A stretch of 62,610 nucleotides of DNA, counting the filler, from Sphacelaria rigidula (taxonomy: Eukaryota), in the NCBI GenBank assembly GCA_964200075.2. It is 9 parts of 9 records of this genome, joined end to end, with 100 filler letters (N's around TTAATTAATTAA, not from the genome) between each part and the next. Parts side by side here need not be neighbours in the genome. Positions count along the whole stretch, not along the records: positions 55,744 to 62,610 come from CAXNAA020017678.1; 8 more parts are not named here. One strand, 5' to 3'. The position numbers were made by a program, and so were the translations under genes. The notes under the pieces are model-generated. The model saw nothing but the letters and a program-made list of their open reading frames with translations. It had not been told where the DNA came from and made no database searches. Below are positions 6,970-62,610 of this stretch, piece by piece (positions within the stretch are counted from its first letter, which is position 1; each line of letters starts with the position of its first letter).

Positions 6970-7276
6970 GGGATCTTCCGCGGGCGGTGCGGCGAGTTCT
7001 GCGGAGGCGCGAGGGGGGTGGGGGGGGGGGGGGGGGGGGGGGGGGAAATCAGGGTGTCACCATCTCAGAACGGTTTCGGAGAAATCGGGATCTAAAAAAA
7101 TAGATTATTCGCCATAAAAGATGGTCTTACGTGAGAAATACCCAGGTACAAAGTCGAGGAAAGTCGCACATCGCCCCATCATAGACAGAAGCCACCTACG
7201 CTGTGCATCATCGGTCTGTGAATAAACCGCAATCTTTGACCACGGCGCGCGCGATATTCCCATGCGGACATCTTAC

Positions 7277-35949: not shown

Positions 35950-36172
35950 CGATTATCACACAGATATCGGAATTATCGCACAGATGTCGATTATTTCGCA
36001 CAGGTGTTGGATTTCTCGCACATGTTTCGAATTTCTCGCTCAGGTACCGGATTTTTCACACATGTATCGGATTTCTGGCACAGGTGTCGGATTTCTGGCA
36101 CAGGTATCGGATTTGTCGCACAGGTGTCGGATCTATCGCACAGGTATCGGATTTATCGCACAGGGGTGCGAT
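35950..36172 (+). repeat. ~21-bp tandem array (CGCACAGGT[G/A]TCGGATTT[C/A]T)
   Basis: About ten degenerate units ending ATCGCACAGGGGTGCGA. Confidence 0.85.
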
Positions 36173-36735
36173 GAAACCGGGGAACCCCCAACTTCGTGTG
36201 TGAGTTCGAGTATCGCAAGTGGTTCCGGGGCACTTACATGTCGGAGCAACGGCCGCAGTGCTGGTATGTCGCGGATTTCCATCGTTTTCTACGATTGGGT
36301 AGGAGTGCGGTTTCTGAGCGAGACCTTCTCTGCTGAAGCCATGTGGCGGAGGCTGGTCATTTTTACCTTTCCATTTATTTTCTTAGTCTACTTGCTCTGT
36401 TCTATTCTCTCTGTTTTTCTTCATTTTTCTTTCTTCAGCAAATGCTTCAGTCTTGTTTTTGTCTCTGGTACGTCCATCATATGGATAATGACCAATAACG
36501 GCTGGATTCCTGGGGGATCAGTTCGAGTGCGACAGTCAATCAATCGATCAAAATCAAATAATCGTGGCTGCACTGCTGTCTTTGTGGCACCGTGGTGAAT
36601 CATGCATAAAAATGGGTATATACAGTCACCCTGTATCGCCGCTGTCGTTTTATTCAATATCACAGAGATCGGTGCCATGGCACAATGAGGTGTGCGTTAA
36701 ATGGGCGAATCAAATGATTCAATTTGATTCGAGCA

Positions 36736-37570
36736 CAGGTATCGCGTTCATCGCACATATCGGAGGCATTGCACATGTCGGAATCACCGCACTGTCGAGT
36801 TACCGCACATGTCGGAGTTACCGCACATGTCGGAGTTACCGCACATGTCGGAGTCATCGCACATATCGGAGTCATAACATATCTGGATTCATCGTATATG
36901 AAGGAGTGATCGCACATGTCGAGTTCATCGCATATATCGGACTCATCGCGCATACCGGATTCATCGCACAGGGGTGCGAAAAAAGTCAAGAACGAAGTGA
37001 CTCGAAGAAACGACGTCGAGCCATGTAGCTCATCCACCCGCCCACTGCCAATGTCCGTCTACATAACACGATAAAAAATACGCCGCGGCAAGACTATGAT
37101 ATACGCCTTCCGCAGGATGAGCTACAGATCAAACTATTTCCGCGGCATGCTGCAGGCATATATGCAGGCGACGTCGCTACGTTACTTCAGGTATCGCGTT
37201 CATCGCACGTATCGGAGGCATTGCACATGTCGGAGTCATCGCACAAATCGGAGTCACCGCGCATGTCGGAGTTACCGCACATGTAGTAACCATCGCACAT
37301 ATCGGAGTCATAACATAGCTGGATTCATCACACATACCGGATTCATCGCACAGGGGTGCGAAAAAAGTCAAGAACGAAATGACTCGAAGAAACAACCTCG
37401 AGCCACGTAGCTTATCCTCCCACCCACTGTCAAAGCCCGCCTACACAACACAATAAAAAACATGCCGCGGCAAGACTATGCTAAACGCCTTCAGTAGGGT
37501 GAGCTACAGATCAGACTATTTCTGCAGCATACTGCAGGCATATATGCAGGCGACGTCTCTACGTTACTTC
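36736..37570 (+). repeat. Two tandem ~400-450-bp units, each with a ~19-bp array (CGCACATGTCGGAGT[T/C]AC)
   Basis: Units 36736-37188 and 37189-37570 share the array, the GGGGTGCGAAAAAAGTCAAGAACGAA junction and the downstream sequence. Confidence 0.85.
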
Positions 37571-39220
37571 AATTGACTCCAAGATGATCGAAACCCAGCA
37601 ACACGGCGGGGATGGATATTCCTCGATTGAAACATAACGGCAATTAATATCAACTGACGCACGAGGATAGTTCACTGCCCTGGTGGCACGTTGATTTGTA
37701 CCCGCGACGCCAACTGCTGTACGGTAAACCACGATAGATCCGGGGGACAAAAGCATTGAGAGCATAGGGGTGTTATTCAACATCACCTGCGGTACAGTGC
37801 AGTACACTCTGTGAGCACACGTGGAACGATCATGCACTACGATTTATATCATACCTCTCATGTATCAACGGAAGTTGCACATAAGCACGACTTGTTGAGT
37901 GCAATACAGAGCACGGCTGCTGCTGCCGAATTCATCAGCAGCAGAACACACTGTTGGAATATGCGTTCGCCAACAAGGATCTCAGCGTAGGGTCTCTGCC
38001 GATACTTCATTTATCTGAAATCATGGTGAGCTTCCCAGCTTCAGGATCAGCGCCGCTCTTATCATGTACTGCACGTGTACATGTTGTTCGGTGCTAGCAC
38101 CATATATGTTAGGGTACGGTACAGTACAGTGTAGATTTACAGTACCGCGCAGAATAGCGTAGAGTAAATCATCGCAGTGGATTCTACCACAGAAAAGTCG
38201 AGTACCGTACATAGCTCATCTTGATTGTGTCCCTCGGGATCTGACGTACAGAAGCACCGCGGAGGGTGCTTCGTTGCTGGCTTACACCCACCAGTTGGAT
38301 GTAGATTTGTAGAACAGGGCCTCTTCAATGCACAACTGCTGGAATATTGACACCCCCTTTACCCGCAGTACCTTCAGCGCCTTCATCAGTCCACCGTCGA
38401 TCACGAAGAGAAGAGATCGTGGAAGAGCGAATCTCAAGTGGAGCATCACTGCATTGCGCCCGTGATTCTTCTTATTCTTGGACACCTTTGATCAACCACC
38501 CAGACCCGCACTCGGAGCTCAACTTTGAGCTGAACTCTTTTGAGCGCTCAGGAAGGGACAATTACGCCTATGGGATCATTTGTAGAGTAGATATACTGCA
38601 ATGCCGATTCAACTGATGGTCACCCTAGACGTTTGAGGGCATGACCCCTTGAGCGCCCGATCTCTTTTCGGAATAATAAATTGAGCTTATTTAGGGCTTA
38701 TCCGGACCCAGTGGTTGAGCACCTCCTCTCTCTTTGCATCGCTCCTCGATGAGAACATGTTGTGCGTTCCGTTGTCCTAGATGCCGAGCGTTTTGTTTGT
38801 ATTTTTTTTCGTGCTTTTAGCCCTCCACCTTCCTCAGGAGCCTGTTGTCGCCGCGATCAACTCAAACATCCCCCGATACTTGCCGTGCAATCTGTTGTCC
38901 AGCATCGGATCACCATTCGCGCAGCCCGTCGATCTCCATGGAATTACTTTTCCGACTTTCGTTCTAACGTTTTCGGAAGACAAAAATCAGGGGGGCGGAA
39001 GCCTCTAGCGCTGCTGTTGGGATTAAAATCCATAAAATCCGCTGCCCTATCGCTCATGTATCAGTCTGACGGCTGGGGCGCGTTGCGTCTGTTGTGAACC
39101 CTTGGTCGGCGTTGGGATCTTCACTGCTGAGGCGTTCAGACTCGAGAAAATTCGAAACACGAGGACTTGCGGGGTAAACATGAAATTCAAAATGTCTTAA
39201 ATTTGCGTTTGAAGGATTAA

Positions 39221-40971: not shown

Positions 40972-42379
40972 TACGATGAAAATACGCCCCTAATTTACCT
41001 GGAGAGAGTGGATAATATATTATTTACCTGGAAATAGTGGATTATTATATTCTTTACCTGGAAATAGCTGATATTATATTCAAATGTACGAACACAGTCA
41101 GAATTCACGGGTATCGAATACCAAATACCCCATCAACCGAAGCGATGACAAGAAGAAATGATTTTAACGGTATCAGGGTTACCGATCTCACGATACTAAG
41201 TACTACTCCCTCTGACCTGTAAAATAAGGAAGGTTTGGACAAAATACGATCTAACGGGTCTACAGAACTCTTTTTCGGGGCATTTTTTTTTTGGTTCCGC
41301 CGCGCTGGCGCGCAGCGCGCAGAACCGTCGTCTTTTTCAAGGGTGAGGGAAAAAGTTGGTCCCACCGCAGCAGACGGCGCCCGCTTAACCCACCCCAAGT
41401 TTGAAGCCCCGGTCAAACGCCTTCTCATCTGCTGGTAGGGCATGTCCGCTGCTGACAGTGCCTCTCTGGGGCAGAAACGTAAGAGTTTCAACGTTTCGGA
41501 GGGAGAACAGCTAATTCGCCATCTTCTCGCCGGCAGCAAGGACGGGGTTCTGCGGCACTGGGTACAATCACGCCAGATTTTCGCCATTTCCCCGATCAGG
41601 GGATTGTAACGCACCATCCCCCCCCCCCCCCCCCCCCCACCCCCCCCCACCGCGCGGGCAAAAGCCGAGCGCCGCCTCGGGGGGGAGGAAACCCCAAACA
41701 ACAAACAACNNNNNNNNNNNNNNNNNNNNNNNNNNNNNNNNNNNNNNNNNNNNTTAATTAATTAANNNNNNNNNNNNNNNNNNNNNNNNNNNNNNNNNNN
41801 NNNNNNNNNCTGGTCCAAGGGGTATCCACGCAAGTTTTGCGCCATTCCCCGTGTCTGGGCTGCGTGTACCTGGGTTGCAATGCCGAAAACAAAGCCGAGG
41901 GATTGATTCGTACGATTCGAATCAACGATGCTAAAACCAAGTAATTTCCAGACAAATCATTGATTTGCCCCACCCTTGAAATGTTTACTGTAGTTGGTGA
42001 CGTTTCGGTCGGTCGTGACGGAGATTGTGATGTGAGTAGGAGCGATGTAAGTGCGGTTTGCGGCGGTTTCACTTAACACACAACGCGGGTGCGACGACGT
42101 TCTTGAGCCAATTGGGGCCCGCATTCCAGATAAAGCCTGTATGGATTCGGTTTCTTGGGAATGAAAAATACGCCAGTGTTTACGGTTACCAAGGTACCAC
42201 GCTCACTGAAGAGCCGTGCCATGTTACGCTGATTTAACTTTTTTTTTTTTACTTAGTCATCCCCCATGCTCCGTCTCGAGAGGGGTGCATGGTCAATGGT
42301 CAAATGACTAGAGCAAGCAACTAATGGGTACGCTCCCCCACACCCCGACACCCCCATCCCCAGTCAAAGTTGATGGAGC

Positions 42380-54934: not shown

Positions 54935-55192
<258 letters not shown>

Positions 55193-55809
55193 TGATCTAA
55201 AGGTGTGTTGAATAGGGTAGATGCCGGGGTATTTACTCACCCGAAATTTGCAAGGTTGTGCTCGGTAGGGTTTGTGTCCGAAAGCTTTTTTTTTTGTTCG
55301 CACTGTAAACAGTACCGAAATGCGAGTTGAACATTCCGGAATGGTTTGACAGGATGTGGAGGTCTGTTGCAAACACTCTGGCATGACCTGGAAGGGGATA
55401 TTTGCCTATGAAACAAAGGTGGGTAAAGAAATATCCCTGGACCCACACTCTCTTTTTTCCATTTGAGGCCGATTGCGGGGGAGGAGGAGGGAGGGGGTAG
55501 CTCTGTTGCGACCGTGTCCGGGCTGTCAGGTTCCGGTTTTATACCAAATCCCATATACTCAATGCAACCAAGCCCAATCACAAGTTATCTGAGTTTAGAA
55601 CGGTTCGAACGGAGGAGAAGAGTTCCTCCACCTGCAGAGCATANNNNNNNNNNNNNNNNNNNNNNNNNNNNNNNNNNNNNNNNNNNNTTAATTAATTAAN
55701 NNNNNNNNNNNNNNNNNNNNNNNNNNNNNNNNNNNNNNNNNNNCAGATATGCCACTTCAGCCCCATATTTTGTTTGAACCCCAAAATATAAAATCGGCTG
55801 TTCCCTGTT

Positions 55810-58500
55810 GATTTTTCCACAACAAGCAATGCGTCGAGCACTCGCGCTAGTAGCTTGTCCACAACCGGCAGTGGCTCGAGTATTTCCCGCATGGCTTTTT
55901 CCACAACGAGCATACGACTCGAGGTCACGCCTTTCAAATTATTCCACAACGGGCGATGGCTCCGGTACCCGCCGTGTTACCTATTCGACAGCATACACTA
56001 ACTCGGGTAGTCGCCTGTTCAGTTTTTCCAAGACAAGCAACGACTCGAGTACTTGCATTTTCAAGTTCTCCACAACAAGCAAACATTCGAGTGCCCACCC
56101 TGTTTATAATTCGCACATCGGACGAGTCAGTAGTCAAGACGAGTGAACTCGCGGTTTTTTCCTGAAAACACCACGAGTTTTTTTCACAACGAGCAATGAC
56201 TCGGGTGTTCGAGTCTTGAATATTTTACTCAAAACGAGCAATAAGTAGTGCGTTTCAGTCATATTGCTTTTAACAACGAGCGATGACTCGTGTGCTGGAG
56301 TTATATTATTTTATTCACAACAAGCAATGAGTCGTGTGCTCGAGTCCTTTATTTCTTGCCACAACAAGCGATGACTCGGGTGTTCGGGTCTTCGTCTTTT
56401 TTCACAACGAGCAATGACCAGTGTTGTAGAGCCCTAGTGTTTTTGTCACAAAGAGCAATGACTCGGGTGCTCGAGTCATGATGTTTTGTTAACAACGAGC
56501 AATTACTCGTGCGCTCGAGTCATTATTTTCGGCCCAAAGATCGATGACTCTTTTGCTTCAGTCCTGTATTTTTCGTCACAACTAACAATTACCCGTGTTC
56601 TATGGTCATGTCTTATTGGTCACAGCGAGTATTGACTTGTGTGCTCGAGAATTTTTGTTTTCGTAACAAGAGATGACCCGTGTTCTAGAGTCCTATTGTT
56701 TTTGTTACAACGAGCAATGACTCGGGTGCTCGGGTCTTGATATTATTTTCACAACGAGCAATGACTCATGCGTTTCAGTCATTTCGTCTTTGTCCCAACG
56801 AGCAATGACTCGTGTTCCAGAGTGTATTTTTCGTCACAACGAGCAATGACCCGGGTGTTCGAGTCTTCTTTTTTTCGCAAGTAACAATGACCCGTGTTGT
56901 AGGGTCATGTATTATTGGTCACAACGAGCAATGCCTCGTGTGCTCGAGATTTTTTTATTTCGCCACGAGCGAATACTCGTGTCCTAGAGTATGTTTTCTT
57001 GCCACAACGACCAATGACCCGGGTGCTCGAGTCATGATGTTTTGTCAACAACGAGTATTGACTGGTGCACTTGAGTCATTATTTTTCGCCACAAAGATCG
57101 ATGACTCTTGTGCTCCAGTCAGGTATTTTTTTGTCGCAACTAACAATGACCCGTGTTCTATGGTCATGTCTTATTGGTCGCAACGAGCAATGACTCGTGC
57201 GCTCGAGATTTTTTGTTTTCGCAAGGAGCGATGACTTGTGTTCCGGAGTATAGTTTTTGTCACAGGAAGCAATGACTCGGGTGTTCAGGTCATGATTTTT
57301 TTGCACAACGAGCAATGACCCGTGTTCTAGAGTCCTATTGTTTGTGTCACAAAGAGCAATGACTCGGGTGCTCGAGTCATGATGTTTTGTTTACAACGAG
57401 CAATTACTCGGGTGTTCGAGTTCTCGTCTTTTTACACAATTAACAATGACCCGTGTTGTAGGGTCATGTATTATTGGTCACAACGAGCAATGACTCGTGT
57501 GCTCGAGATTATTTGATTTTGCCACGAGCGATGACTCGTGTTCTAGAGTAGTTTTTGTCACAACGACTAATTCCTTGGGTGCTCGAGTCAGAATGTTTTG
57601 TTCACAACGAGCAATGACTGTTGCGCTTGAGTCATTATTTTTCGCCACAAAGATCGATGACTTTTGTGCTCCGGTCAGATATTTGTTTTGTCACAAGTAA
57701 CAATGACCCGTGTTCTAGGTCATGTGTTATTGGTCACAACGAGCAATGACTCGTGTGCTCGAGAATGTGTTTTTCACAACGAGCGATGACTCGTGTTCTA
57801 GAGTATATTTTTTGTCACAACGAGAAATGACTCGGGTGTTCCTAAGTCTTCGTCTTTGTTCACCACGAGCAATGACTCGTGCGCTTAAGTCATTGTTTTT
57901 AGTCACAAAAACCGACGAATCTTGCACGCCAGTCATGTGTCTTCTGTCACAGCTAACAATGACCCTGTTCTAGGGTCATGTATTATTCGTCACAACAAGC
58001 AATAACTCGTGTGCTCGAGGTTATGTTTTCGCAATGAGCGATGACTACTGTTCCAGAGTATATTTTTTGTCACAACGAGCGACTAGTCGTTTTCTAGAGT
58101 CTTTTACTTTTTCGTCAAAACGATTAATGACTCGGGTAATCGTATGTTGTTGTTTTTTCCACAACGAGCAACGTCTCGTGTTCTCGAGTCACGTACTGTT
58201 TTTCACAACAAGCGGTGGCTCGAACGCACGACGGGTCACGTGCCCGAGACATTCTCCTTTCTTAACGAGCAACGACTCGAGCGCTTGGGTAATGTATGTT
58301 TTTTCACAACGAGCGATGACTCGTGTGCGCGAGTCCTCATTTTTCCCACAACGAACAATGACTCGTGTGCTCGAGTCGTTAATTGTTCCAACGACGATGA
58401 ACGATTCGTGTGCTCGAGTCGTAATTCCTTTTTCACAACGAACGATGACTCGAGTGTTTGCTCTGTTCAATTTTTCCACAACCCGCGGTTACTCGAGTGT
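55810..58500 (+). repeat. Tandem array of ~43-bp units, roughly 60 copies
   Basis: Consensus CACAACGAGCAATGACTCG(T/G)GTGCTCGAGTC plus a T-rich linker; more diverged at both edges. Confidence 0.93.
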
Positions 58501-58652
58501 AATGGGACGAATCCAGTCGGTACATGCCAACGAAATCCACCACATCGCAAGTTTCAGATGTCAACCGCGCCATGGCGATAACGTATATTATGCGATAGCG
58601 CTCCCTCACAGAATCTATGACAATCCGACTGCTTCGATACTTCACGTCGCAG

Positions 58653-61600
58653 GAATCGCGACGGCGTTCGGATGAGGAAAGACCCCCACGCGAAAAAGCT
58701 CTTCTTGCGTTCCTAGACTGGTATGCCGACGTATACGGTCAGCACATGCCGCACGAGTTTGCAACATATCTCTACATGCGCAACAAGCAGGTACGTGAAA
58801 GCGGCACTCGGCGGGTCGCTCTCATTCCCGACGCGAGCGGCATCGACTCACGCGGTCATCGTTTCGCATGCACACGATACCGACACCCGCTACGGTCGTT
58901 GACGGACTGAGCACATTCTGTTTTGTAGTTTGCTGGCGCATCCGACGAACATGACCAATATTATCAGTAGCCGCTCTCCGAAACCGAGATACATGTATTT
59001 TTGGAGAGTGGCAGGGAAGCTTGTATTGTTTCCCGTGGGTAGTCACCTGTCGACTGTCAAGGCCACACCTACGCAGAAGCGAACGATATCGTTTGTATTC
59101 GCGCACCACCTCAACATATCCCGCCCGATGCGATCCACGACATATCGCATGAACTATACGACACCTTCGTCGCGGAGGCGATTCGCGTCGGAGAGACAGT
59201 GGTCAGCCGAAGCTACTTTTACCAGAAGCTGCGCGAACAACGACCTAACTACAAGATGCGCTCCGGTTGCTCATTCATAAAATGCCACAGCTGCACACTG
59301 TACCACGACACCCTAAATAGTACCGCAGGCGTGAGAGTGACGGCAGACCCCCAGACGATGGAGAGTGCGAAGGCAGCGCAAGTCGCGCATATGAAGGCAA
59401 GAAAATCAATAGCTCTCTTTGTTGACTAACGATATTTCGGCGCAAGGGCGCTGCCATGATATGATTGGTAAAACACGTCCATGTCGTTCGTCGAGTTAGG
59501 CCGGCTGTCATATCACCATATAGTATTCACCTGATCCGCAGGAAGGTCCGACGGGGTTCCTCATCACAAGCTCTAACTCTCGGAGTATTATTCCCGGGCC
59601 TTGCTTCTGTTGCGCCGCACTCGGTTACTCACCGATTGTCTTTTGTCGCCAGCTGTTTAACGTTTTCTTTTCCATATGCATTTTTTTCGCCCTCGGTTTA
59701 TTCACGGAACATGGCGAGTGCTCCGGTATCACGTTATCACGCGGCAGGCGCGTTGAATATCAAACGCCTGCGCCATTCCGCCCCGTTTCCGTTTCGCGGC
59801 ATGGGATCGATCGCTGAAGGGGCACTGACCCGCGTGTCGTCGTGCCCCAGACACAGCTACAGTGGCCCTGACTTATGACCGTGCATGAATACACGAATAT
59901 TTTGAATTATCATGGTCAAGAAACAACCAGAAGCAGTCCCACTCAGCTATTTGCACTTCGAAGTGGTCCTCTCAAGATGACACCACGCCAACGTCTCGTC
60001 ATCCTCTCAGGCGTTGACAGCAGACCGAGAGCGACTTGCTTCTATCAGCTCCGGAGCCATTCGAGCAAAGGCGAACATGGATCAACTCAAGTTCATCTCC
60101 ATGCAAGCGGACGCAGCGGCCCAGACGGCGTTCGCGTTACCAATGTGCTTGCCGTTGACCCACGGGACAGACAGGTTAGTGAGCGATTGCCACTGCAGCA
60201 CAGCAGCCGCACTTGGCTTCCCCCCTCACCCCCTTCCCCGCGCGCTCACCCGTAGCCCATTGAATTCCGTTAGCCACACAAGGGGTAGGTCGCACTCCCC
60301 CCCACATGTATTTACAACCGGGGCGTGTCTATCGCACAAGCTACACGATGAAAGGAGGCACACAAAACTCCCGTCCTGAGGTCATAACAACCGTTGAGTG
60401 GATGGACGACCAACGCTTGTACTCTGATACGTTATCGTTCACAGACAGGCCTGGCCATTCGCCTTATCTGCAGGGATTGGTATACTACACCCTGCAGGTG
60501 AGGTGGCCCACGTCGTTACTCGCACAGAATTGCTACCCTGACTCATGCCCCAGAGTTTCGGGGTGATGATCGACTCGGGAGTTGCTTCAATCTTTTGAGA
60601 CGATCCCCTAGGTGCTGGCCGGCCATCGGCTCAAGCACGAATGCCGTACATTTCTCCTGATTTGTCGGCGACCATTCGCCATCGTGCTGGTCAATGATCT
60701 AGCGTTTGTACTGATGGACGACAGAAACGAAAACATCGCCACAATGTGTTGTCCAAGAGGTTTAGGCATTGAGCAAAATTCAATAAATGCAATCCATGCG
60801 CTGAATGATTGGCGCTTTCTGAGCTGCGTCCGTACTGATCTCGATATCCTCCCAAAGTTTCGTTTTGTTCTCAAAATTTTTCTGTTGGGAAATTGGACGC
60901 AATAAATATAACACGAATGTTAAGTTCAACGGGTATTGCTTCGCATTTCGCTGTTGATGTCGACAATGGTTCGCGCGCGTTCTTGCCGTTGGTATCAACG
61001 TTTGTCCCGACTGGCAGGGGATATGCGGAACGTCAAAAGATCATGGCGGTCCTGGTGGAAAGGCAGTTCGTGGAGTTCTTCCTGTCTCCCCGGACAGTTG
61101 GAGGGGGTGAGTTGTGCTATTTCCCACGCGATTCACACGCACATACGCACCGATACAAGTCATATTTTATTCGCTGTGTGAACATCGGGTATGTTTCCGA
61201 TCCTCTCCTGGCCGACGGTCCCGGCGAACACTTGAACATCAACGACCCTGACGCCGTCGATACTCGCCTCTGTACAGGGAGCAACCTTGATTGCACTTCA
61301 ATCCACCTGGCGCTCACCAGATTGTTCGACTTGCACTGCGACGGCGATACACCAGCTCACATCGACCAGCTGTTCCTGCAGCTCGACAACTGCGTCGGGA
61401 AGAACAAAAATCACATCGTGCTGGCGTACCTCGGATTTCTGGTGGCCCGCGGGACGATCGGTCGGGTCGAGATAAATGTTATGATGGTCGGTCATACACA
61501 TATCATGGTCGACCAAGTATTCTCAAGGTGCGTCGGGGCGTAAACTATAAATTTATTTTTTGTTCGCGACATTACTGTTTATCTCCGCTCGGTTGTCACA

Positions 61601-62389
61601 ACCGTTGTAGGCTATCCCCAGACACGATGCGGGGAAAGAGCCCTCACGACTTGTGCGTCGGGATGAAGAGGCGGCACCGTTTTACCGTTGCCAACGTAAC
61701 AATGCAGGCGTAATACCACGGCGTAGGTCAGTCAATATTTCATCGAAGTTCGCAATCGTTTTTCCATTTGCTGAGCAGGTTGGTTTCCCTAGTACGACTA
61801 TTCCTGTCCTTGTTGATGTCCGCTTCAAGATCGTGCGGTGCTTCCTCACCATTGGTAGGGCAAGGTTCCGGACAAAGTTTACCTGCGACACGCGAGAAAA
61901 GAAATATACGTGACGCAAGCCAGGAATGACACATTCTTGATTGTATAAACAGGCTTTCGGTACACTGCAAGAGGGTGTGTCTGTTCACGAGACGACAGCA
62001 AGCAGCAGCATTCCGCAGAGCATACACGACCCTGCCAGTGTTCACCACAACTCTTCGCTCCCTGGGGAACTTCAAAGGCGCTGTCAGTGTAGGTGGCCGC
62101 GTGATGCCCATCCGTGGGGTGACTCAGCCCCGGTCATTCGAAATCCGCCCAGCAGGGACTGAGCAGGTTACTGTGGGCATGAAGAAAAACATGCATAACG
62201 CGATTTTCAGAGGGAAAACGCCCGCGGGGATCTACGAGGGAGCCCCTCACCCGCTCTTCCGCATGGGTGTTCTAGATGTTGAGTGCGCACCTCCATTCGA
62301 GCTTAAGGAGGTGGACGCCGCGGTGCGACAGAACATCAAGACTCACTACAACCCCGTGCACTGTCGACTGGCCATCCTTTACCCTCTCG
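58653..62389 (+). mobile_element. Intron-containing Sola-like (DUF7869-type) DDD transposase; exons 58653-58790, 59151-59396, 60011-60174, 61018-61106, 61278-61527, 61953-62389
   Basis: The exons join in phase: FLDWYADVYGQHMP; FIKCHSC...H; MQADAAAQTAFALP; GSNL; LFLQLDNCVGKNKN...LVARG...MVGHTHIMVDQVFSRLS. Confidence 0.8.
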
Positions 62390-62555
62390 GTGCGTGTCGA
62401 TCGCACTCACCCCGCGCAATCACGCAATATTATGACCGTTCTTCATTGCATTTCCCGCGCGCGATGCTGACTGTGGCCCTGGAATTCTCCTCCCGCTAAC
62501 CCCTGCCCTCCAGTCTCGTCCCCATATGGAGTCCACCCGATCCTCAAGACCCCAC

Positions 62556-62602
<47 letters not shown>

Positions 62603-62610
62603 CCGCCCGC

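Follow-up and report, generated by a model that had tools for sequence, protein, structure and literature searches.

Background

En/Spm and Ac carry subterminal transposase-binding repeats, 12-bp motifs in the former and hexamers in the latter. The reading of subterminal or palindromic repeats by transposases has been established for Hermes (PMC10368747) and piggyBac (PMC7351741), and the seeding of satellites by transposon repeats for Tetris (PMC4079207) and the oyster Helentrons (PMC7492417), with a 2025 review (PMC12628747). Among the Sola families (Sola1/2/3), Sola-1 and Sola-2 are reported from the brown alga Ectocarpus, where Sola1-1_Ec32 is a giant element of 21.5 kb with a 282-bp terminal inverted repeat (TIR) and Sola2-1_Ec32 is 4.6 kb long with a 26-bp TIR and a 4-bp target site duplication (TSD) (PMC12477816). 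The DNA analysed here (the window) is a stretch of 62,610 nucleotides from Sphacelaria rigidula, in which an array of ~44-bp palindromic units lies directly upstream of a gene for a transposase of the Pfam family DUF7869. On the basis of sequence comparison, a transposon-borne repeat region that was amplified into a mini-satellite is put forward as the explanation of this arrangement, with a probability of about 0.5.

The array and its units

The window is composed of nine unrelated contigs of 6867-6869 bp each, separated by eight linkers, a pattern typical of unplaced contigs that were ordered by size before being strung together. Because the pieces were joined artificially, the finding is confined to a single 6867-bp contig at 55744-62610, and features spanning a linker would be an artefact. 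This contig is short and unplaced, and both of its ends are cut. The features of the array, the junction and the gene are as follows.

55790..56184, + strand: array left edge, ~9 degenerate, GC-richer units (guanine plus cytosine (GC) 0.486)
56185..58159, + strand: array core, 46 units of 39-46 bp, irregular higher-order repeats at lags of 6, 7, 13, and 19 units, GC 0.429
58160..58500, + strand: array right edge, 7-8 more divergent, GC-richer units (GC 0.493), with a last partial unit at 58478-58500
58501..58616, + strand: junction spacer, with an in-frame stop at 58596-58598 just ahead of the homologous coding sequence
58617..58790, + strand: exon 1, from the first ATG (homology starts at 58599), encoding ...LDWYADVYGQHMPHE
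59043..59396, + strand: exon 2, with an FxKCxxC zinc-like motif and a GC donor
60011..60174, + strand: exon 3, region of the first catalytic Asp, MQADAAAQTAFALP
61018..61106, + strand: exon 4, GYAERQKIMAV...
61278..61527, + strand: exon 5, catalytic core LDNCVGKNKN...VGHTHIMVDQVFS, Pfam DUF7869
61953..62389, + strand: exon 6, followed by an intron; the contig stops before the remainder of the gene

The array extends over ~2.7 kb (55790-58500), beginning ~46-74 bp from the left end of the contig, and consists of ~60 head-to-tail units of ~44 bp, all on the + strand; this total combines the units found by a profile with the degenerate units at the edges and in gaps. The nhmmer profile recovered 55 units, on the + strand only, between 55818 and 58460, with a start-to-start spacing of 39-46 bp in 50 of 54 gaps, and the remaining four gaps (84, 127, 156, and 101 bp) contain degenerate units. 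Tandem Repeats Finder (TRF) gave a period of 44, with 45.6 copies at 56178-58134 (score 922, 64% matches) and another 3.5 at 58305-58456. The initial annotation had described about 60 tandem units of 43 bp; the tandem arrangement and the number were reproduced, the latter as the 55 profile units plus degenerate edge units, and the unit length is to be amended to a typical 44 bp.

A 52-unit alignment gave the consensus CACAACGAGCAATGACTCGTGTGCTCGAGTCAT, followed by the variable T-rich linker that had been described initially. The entire unit forms a long imperfect palindrome, whose 22-bp dyad can be written ATGACTCG-N6-CGAGTCAT. When up to two mismatches were allowed, the dyad GACTCG-N6-CGAGTC, also taken from the initial annotation, was matched 28 times in the window; 27 of these matches fall inside 56198-58420 and five of the 27 are perfect, as compared with an expectation of 2.07 for the whole window (largest value 6), and none of 100 shuffles reached 28. 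The arms of the dyad pair in 70.4% of cells versus 29-44% for slid controls, and the dyad is thus a property of the consensus. A second candidate dyad, CGAGCA...TGCTCG, was 64% paired at a slide of -1. When DNA hairpin folding was compared with shuffles, well-preserved units folded better (z -3.7 and -3.1), whereas decayed units did not (z 0.4).

The array looks old and satellite-like. Mean unit identity is 0.61 between neighbours (lag 1) versus 0.67, 0.71, and 0.67 at lags of 6, 13, and 19 units, which shows that multi-unit blocks have been duplicated, and longer periods of 87, 131, and 256-300 bp were also reported by TRF within the array. Tandem amplification with higher-order structure, a feature of transposon-derived satellite DNA, is therefore present. 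Both edges are more divergent and GC-richer than the core (0.49 vs 0.43). The monomer had no significant match in the other eight contigs of the window (profile search, best E 0.15), and the exact 22-base core, written in International Union of Pure and Applied Chemistry (IUPAC) code, had 0 matches in metagenome_contigs and 0 in viral_contigs.

The junction and the transposase gene

Array and gene share the + strand. Recognisable units extend to 58477 and the partial unit to ~58500, which leaves ~100 bp to the first homologous coding sequence, with homology from 58599 and the first ATG at 58617; the array thus ends within ~150 bp of the first transposase exon, in agreement with the initial annotation. 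Homology to relatives extends upstream of this ATG to the stop at 58596-58598, and this would be either a 3' splice site (AG at 58597-58598) or what is left of a decayed N-terminal region.

The gene comprises six + strand exons (58617-62389) that encode 489 codons with no stop, and five introns of 171-843 bp, four of them GT-AG and one GC-AG. Joins between exons 3 and 4, 4 and 5, and 5 and 6 were confirmed by spliced relatives, and the intron positions that flank exon 5 are common to relatives of 50-70% identity. The description of an intron-rich transposase gene beside the array was borne out by these six exons and five introns and by the Pfam DUF7869 match given below. At the right end of the contig, in a run of 43 C residues (C43), the gene is truncated, and its C-terminal part lies off the contig.

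Two further coding candidates were rejected. An extra 'exon' of 49-53 bp at 60445/60449-60497 breaks the frame, and relatives from Ectocarpus and Sphacelaria join exon 3 straight to 61018. A duplicated pseudo-exon in intron 3 (60944-61017), in which FAVDVDNGSRAFLP resembles the first-Asp motif, had been suggested by tblastn with the Ectocarpus and Undaria proteins; it was dropped after BLASTP failed to align the two window pieces at E <= 100 and they aligned only weakly as DNA, and the resemblance is probably due to chance.

Relatives encode ~100-150 residues before an 'MP' motif, consisting of a CCxxxC module and a helix-turn-helix (HTH)-like C..AF..hG.S motif. A hidden Markov model (HMM) of this N-terminal module was built from ~20 related loci and matched the Undaria protein P0002 at residues 93-143 (E 1e-6). 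Residues 1-144 of P0002 gave only spurious tblastn matches on the contig, and a search with the 64-amino-acid exon-1 open reading frame (ORF) for the N-terminus of close relatives returned nothing at E <= 1. Either the N-terminal exons are located past the array, outside the contig, or the 5' coding part was lost right at the array end. Since the module is missing, this gene copy, as judged from its sequence, probably has a defective 5' end and would be non-autonomous, and the layout is not a clean succession of element end, untranslated region (UTR), and ATG. No TIR, TSD, or other element end was found on the 6867-bp contig.

Family membership and predicted fold of the protein

Exon 5 matched Pfam DUF7869 (PF25273) with 69.1 bits (cut-off 26, E 5e-19, ORF residues 148-231). 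The family motifs QADAA (exon 3) and LDNCVGKNKN and GHTHIMVDQ (exon 5) are all present on the contig, and the pattern D...DNCxxxNKN...GHTHxxxD was matched. In alignments D, N, N, K, G, H, and T are nearly invariant, and the third acidic residue varies in a few fragments; DNCxGxNKN and GHTHxxxD are common to the window protein and its brown-algal relatives. The closest named relatives are all brown-algal, namely three Sphacelaria rigidula proteins on three contigs (P0012, P0014, and P0162, the last itself 5'-partial), which are 64-71% identical to the window protein, and P0001 of Ectocarpus sp. and P0002 of Undaria, which are 34-40% identical. With three proteins on three contigs, the DUF7869 transposase family is multi-copy in a brown alga. 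The family as a whole numbered 1002 cluster representatives at E <= 0.001, and no relatives of the transposase were present in viral_contigs.

DUF7869 was the sole Pfam family (E <= 1) in all 40 long relatives. Zator, which we take to be PF07592 (Zator/TP36), had been considered since PF07592 made up 11% of one Atlas cluster, the Atlas row score of 0.86 being a lead only; it was rejected because none of the 40 relatives and none of six window ORFs matched it at E <= 1, and the Atlas clusters were DUF7869 clusters only. The initial annotation had used the label Sola-like. DUF7869 may correspond to Sola, an unconfirmed label, and what was demonstrated is Pfam DUF7869, with an RNase H-like fold predicted from a relative.

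The fold was assessed on the Ectocarpus relative P0001, not on the window protein. The P0001 model had a mean predicted local distance difference test (pLDDT) score of 73, with values above 90 for most of residues 90-450. Its core is RNase H-like according to VIA-align, in which the best match was Mos1 mariner (3hos_A, Z 9.3, root-mean-square deviation (rmsd) 3.6, 177 residues aligned), with further matches to Metnase (Z 9.2) and retroviral integrases (Z 8-9) over residues ~105-302. Foldseek with the same model gave no match at E <= 0.001, and its weak rows were likewise RNase H-like folds. The matches to Mos1, Metnase, and the integrases argue for a DDE/D-type transposase, and the window protein is predicted from this model to be one, with Pfam DUF7869.

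Separately, residues ~521-652 of P0001 showed a weak resemblance to BAH/chromo-type chromatin readers (DNMT1 BAH1, Z 5.1; EBS, Z 5.1; MRG701 chromodomain, Z 4.7). A chromatin-reader-like C-terminal part, if real, would hint at chromatin-targeted insertion; the corresponding part of the gene is off the contig.

Repeats upstream of related transposases

The comparison set comprised 35 metagenomic loci encoding relatives, 15 of which had 200 bp or more ahead of the N-terminal ORF. The count was of exact palindromes that recur, with 7-bp arms, a spacer of up to 10, and at least two sites. Such palindromes were found upstream in four of the 15 loci (L002, L003, L005, and L012; ~13 kb in total) and in the ORF and downstream sequence of one of 22 loci (~85 kb), and for every locus none of 200 shuffles of the upstream region gave a recurrent palindrome.

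The clearest arrangement was that of L003, in which eight diverged tandem units of ~95-146 bp occupy positions 615-1640 (~1 kb, 52% mean column identity) and end 344 bp before a 1070-codon transposase ORF. The invariant block of these units is the palindrome core CCATATGG, and every unit holds TTTGGCCATATGGCCAAA and a second motif, ACAnTGAGGATTCACAA; the array was missed by TRF. L005, L006, and L012 are separate contigs with upstream regions that are 58% identical and a conserved block that is the palindrome GCTCAAACTT..G.T.GAGC, which argues that the motif travels with the gene. At the start of L002 lie two units of 48 bp, and each contains a 22-bp palindrome. The palindrome motifs differ in sequence between lineages, as would be expected if each transposase reads its own site.

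Interpretation of the locus

The proposed explanation may be set out as follows. The array would be the 5' repeat region of a DUF7869-type cut-and-paste transposon in a brown-alga-like genome. The DNA upstream of the transposase gene in this family would often carry a few direct repeats around a palindromic motif, and a dimeric DNA-binding part of the transposase presumably docks at these motifs. The repeat block would then have grown, through slippage or unequal exchange, to become a mini-satellite of ~60 units that spans 2.7 kb or more, which would have acquired higher-order structure and later decayed. A further step, that DUF7869 transposons may generally use palindrome-cored upstream repeat arrays as a docking platform, which in this genome would have run away to at least 60 units, is doubtful at present.

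The principal alternative is that the neighbourhood arose by chance, a 44-bp host satellite of heterochromatic or intergenic DNA having been brought beside a 5'-truncated transposon by insertion, deletion, or recombination. This is the less likely account overall but a serious one, and it would explain the loss of the N-terminal module exactly at the junction, a contig that is short, unplaced, and made up of repeats only, the higher-order periods, degenerate edges, and 61% unit identity as satellite hallmarks, and the differences in decay and in GC between the array (0.43) and the exons (0.53); repeat-rich unplaced scaffolds and transposon enrichment near satellites have been described in Ectocarpus (PMC12477816). 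It is opposed by the recurrence of palindrome-bearing upstream repeats in relatives, which makes the same position and orientation here unlikely to be pure coincidence. The array fades through degenerate units on both sides, including the one that faces the gene, and these gradual edges are unlike the sharp cut that insertion into a homogeneous satellite would leave, which supports a repeat region belonging to the transposon. The array also differs from the ~98-bp subtelomeric satellite with TTAGGG described for Ectocarpus (PMC11541908), and TTAGGG/CCCTAA occurs 0 times within it.

That the gene might instead be complete and hold the array within a long intron at its 5' end (or in its 5' UTR), with the N-terminal exons to the left of the contig and the transposase active or domesticated, is improbable. 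The homology upstream of the first ATG runs to the stop at 58596-58598, which is preceded by ...GCGATAG and has the look of a 3' splice site, the rest of the gene is open and its splice sites are canonical, and the shared introns around exon 5 point the same way; on the other hand, the palindromic repeats of relatives lie upstream of the whole ORF and none within it, the 46-74 bp that precede the array contained no exon-like sequence, and the intron would have to span 2.8 kb or more, far above the five that were seen. It is highly improbable that the junction is a chimeric join made during assembly: for all that the contig is short, comes from a fragmented assembly, and ends in the C43 homopolymer, the units at 61% identity are divergent enough for unique assembly, and the degenerate units grade into unique sequence with nothing in it that marks a join.

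Several observations weigh against a transposon-borne origin of the array. The N-terminal Cys-rich/HTH module was not found on the contig, the best HMM match (E 0.4) lying inside the array. Compensatory upkeep of the dyad was not found either, with 315 of 500 shuffles pairing equally well, and six double changes at one dyad pair fall in related units; conservation is higher in the left half of the unit (CACAA.GA.CAATGAC) than in the dyad's right arm. The exons are intact, whereas neighbouring units share 61% identity, so the array and the gene may have separate histories, and no enrichment of the monomer or of half-sites was seen in the rest of the element. Among the relatives, none of the 35 loci has a multi-kb array by TRF, the longest being the ~1 kb of L003, several loci come from the same assemblies and represent ~three to six independent lineages, and further dyad repeats in L008, L023, and L034 were noted by eye with no control. 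Finally, the sole junction is on one 6.9-kb unplaced contig.

The initial annotation had offered a terminus formed by a binding-site array and a transposon-seeded satellite as two possibilities. The higher-order periods speak for satellite features, and the lack of covariation speaks against upkeep of the dyad. The idea that the repeats belong to the element is supported indirectly by the palindrome-cored upstream repeats of relatives, and is countered by the missing N-terminal module and the old, satellite-like array.

Other features of the contig and the window

The remaining features of the contig, and the linkers, are as follows.

6870, 13838, 20806, 27774, 34742, 41710, 48677, and 55644 (starts): eight identical 100-base artificial linkers, N44-TTAATTAATTAA-N44
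55644..55743, no strand: artificial linker, parting the contig from the unrelated preceding contig
55744..55789, + strand: 46 bp of unique sequence at the left contig end, ahead of the first degenerate unit; a candidate transposon terminus or host flank
62559..62601, + strand: C43 homopolymer at the right end of the contig

The 46 bp at 55744..55789 showed no similarity elsewhere in the window, and neither the left edge nor the non-array part had further copies in the other 55.6 kb of the window (blastn, tblastn). Outside the array, no internal repeats were found on the contig with the same programs, and no Rfam families were found at 55744-62610.

The C43 run is probably the reason for the assembly break at the right end. 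Long G or C homopolymers were present at three places in the window, namely a 33-base run at 7013-7045, located 44 bases inside a contig start, an internal 31-base run at 41618-41648, and the 43-base run at 62559-62601, at a contig end; assembly breakage is likely at those runs that lie at a contig end or close to one.

On the preceding contig (48777-55643), an exon at 55001-55177 encodes a CDC48 domain-2 fragment (Pfam CDC48_2, E 4e-5) and is followed by a GT donor; this CDC48-like gene is an ordinary host gene on a different contig from the array. The contig at 34842-41709 contains arrays at 35953-37571 with an 18-20-bp unit (TCATCGCACATATCGGAG-like) and higher-order periods of 89 bp and 382 bp (TRF), unrelated in sequence to the 44-bp array.

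Comparison with known systems

The arrangement is not new in kind, as transposon-linked satellites and subterminal binding repeats are both well known; novelty would lie in the family. Transposases of the DUF7869 type are widespread, and the literature searched contained neither a description of their DNA ends nor any mention of 'DUF7869'. The locus offers a first hint of end architecture for this very poorly characterised family, and the docking-platform reading, if true, would be the first description of it. The palindrome-cored upstream repeats are a candidate binding site of the Cys-rich N-terminal module of the family, and the mini-satellite, if the explanation holds, could regulate its own transposase or serve as a sink for it, and could seed new satellite DNA. 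For brown-algal genomics, the contig is one more repeat-only, unplaced contig that links a transposon with a tandem array.

The window copy shares its Pfam family and motifs with the brown-algal DUF7869 relatives, and differs from them in that it has no CCxxxC/HTH module at the N-terminus and breaks off ahead of the C-terminal part. For the Ectocarpus Sola families, the supplementary table makes no mention of a tandem array and gives the termini as 5-mers only (PMC12477816). As in the Tetris/foldback elements of Drosophila and the oyster Helentron, a tandem array with satellite-like amplification is attached to a DNA transposon (PMC4079207, PMC7492417, PMC12628747); in the accounts of Tetris and Helentron, however, the link is seen in many genomic copies and arrays also occur free of the element, whereas a single junction is available here, and foldback arrays are described as forming inverted termini, whereas the contig has no second end. 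Hermes (hAT) and piggyBac are described as carrying multiple short binding motifs close to an element end, ahead of the transposase gene (PMC10368747, PMC7351741), to which the array bears a putative likeness, and by analogy its palindromic motifs would suit a dimeric reader. In these elements the motifs number from a handful to some tens and span a few hundred bp at each of the two ends, as compared with the ~60 units over 2.7 kb, on one visible side and with a poorly conserved right arm of the dyad, that precede the DUF7869 transposase gene in Sphacelaria rigidula.

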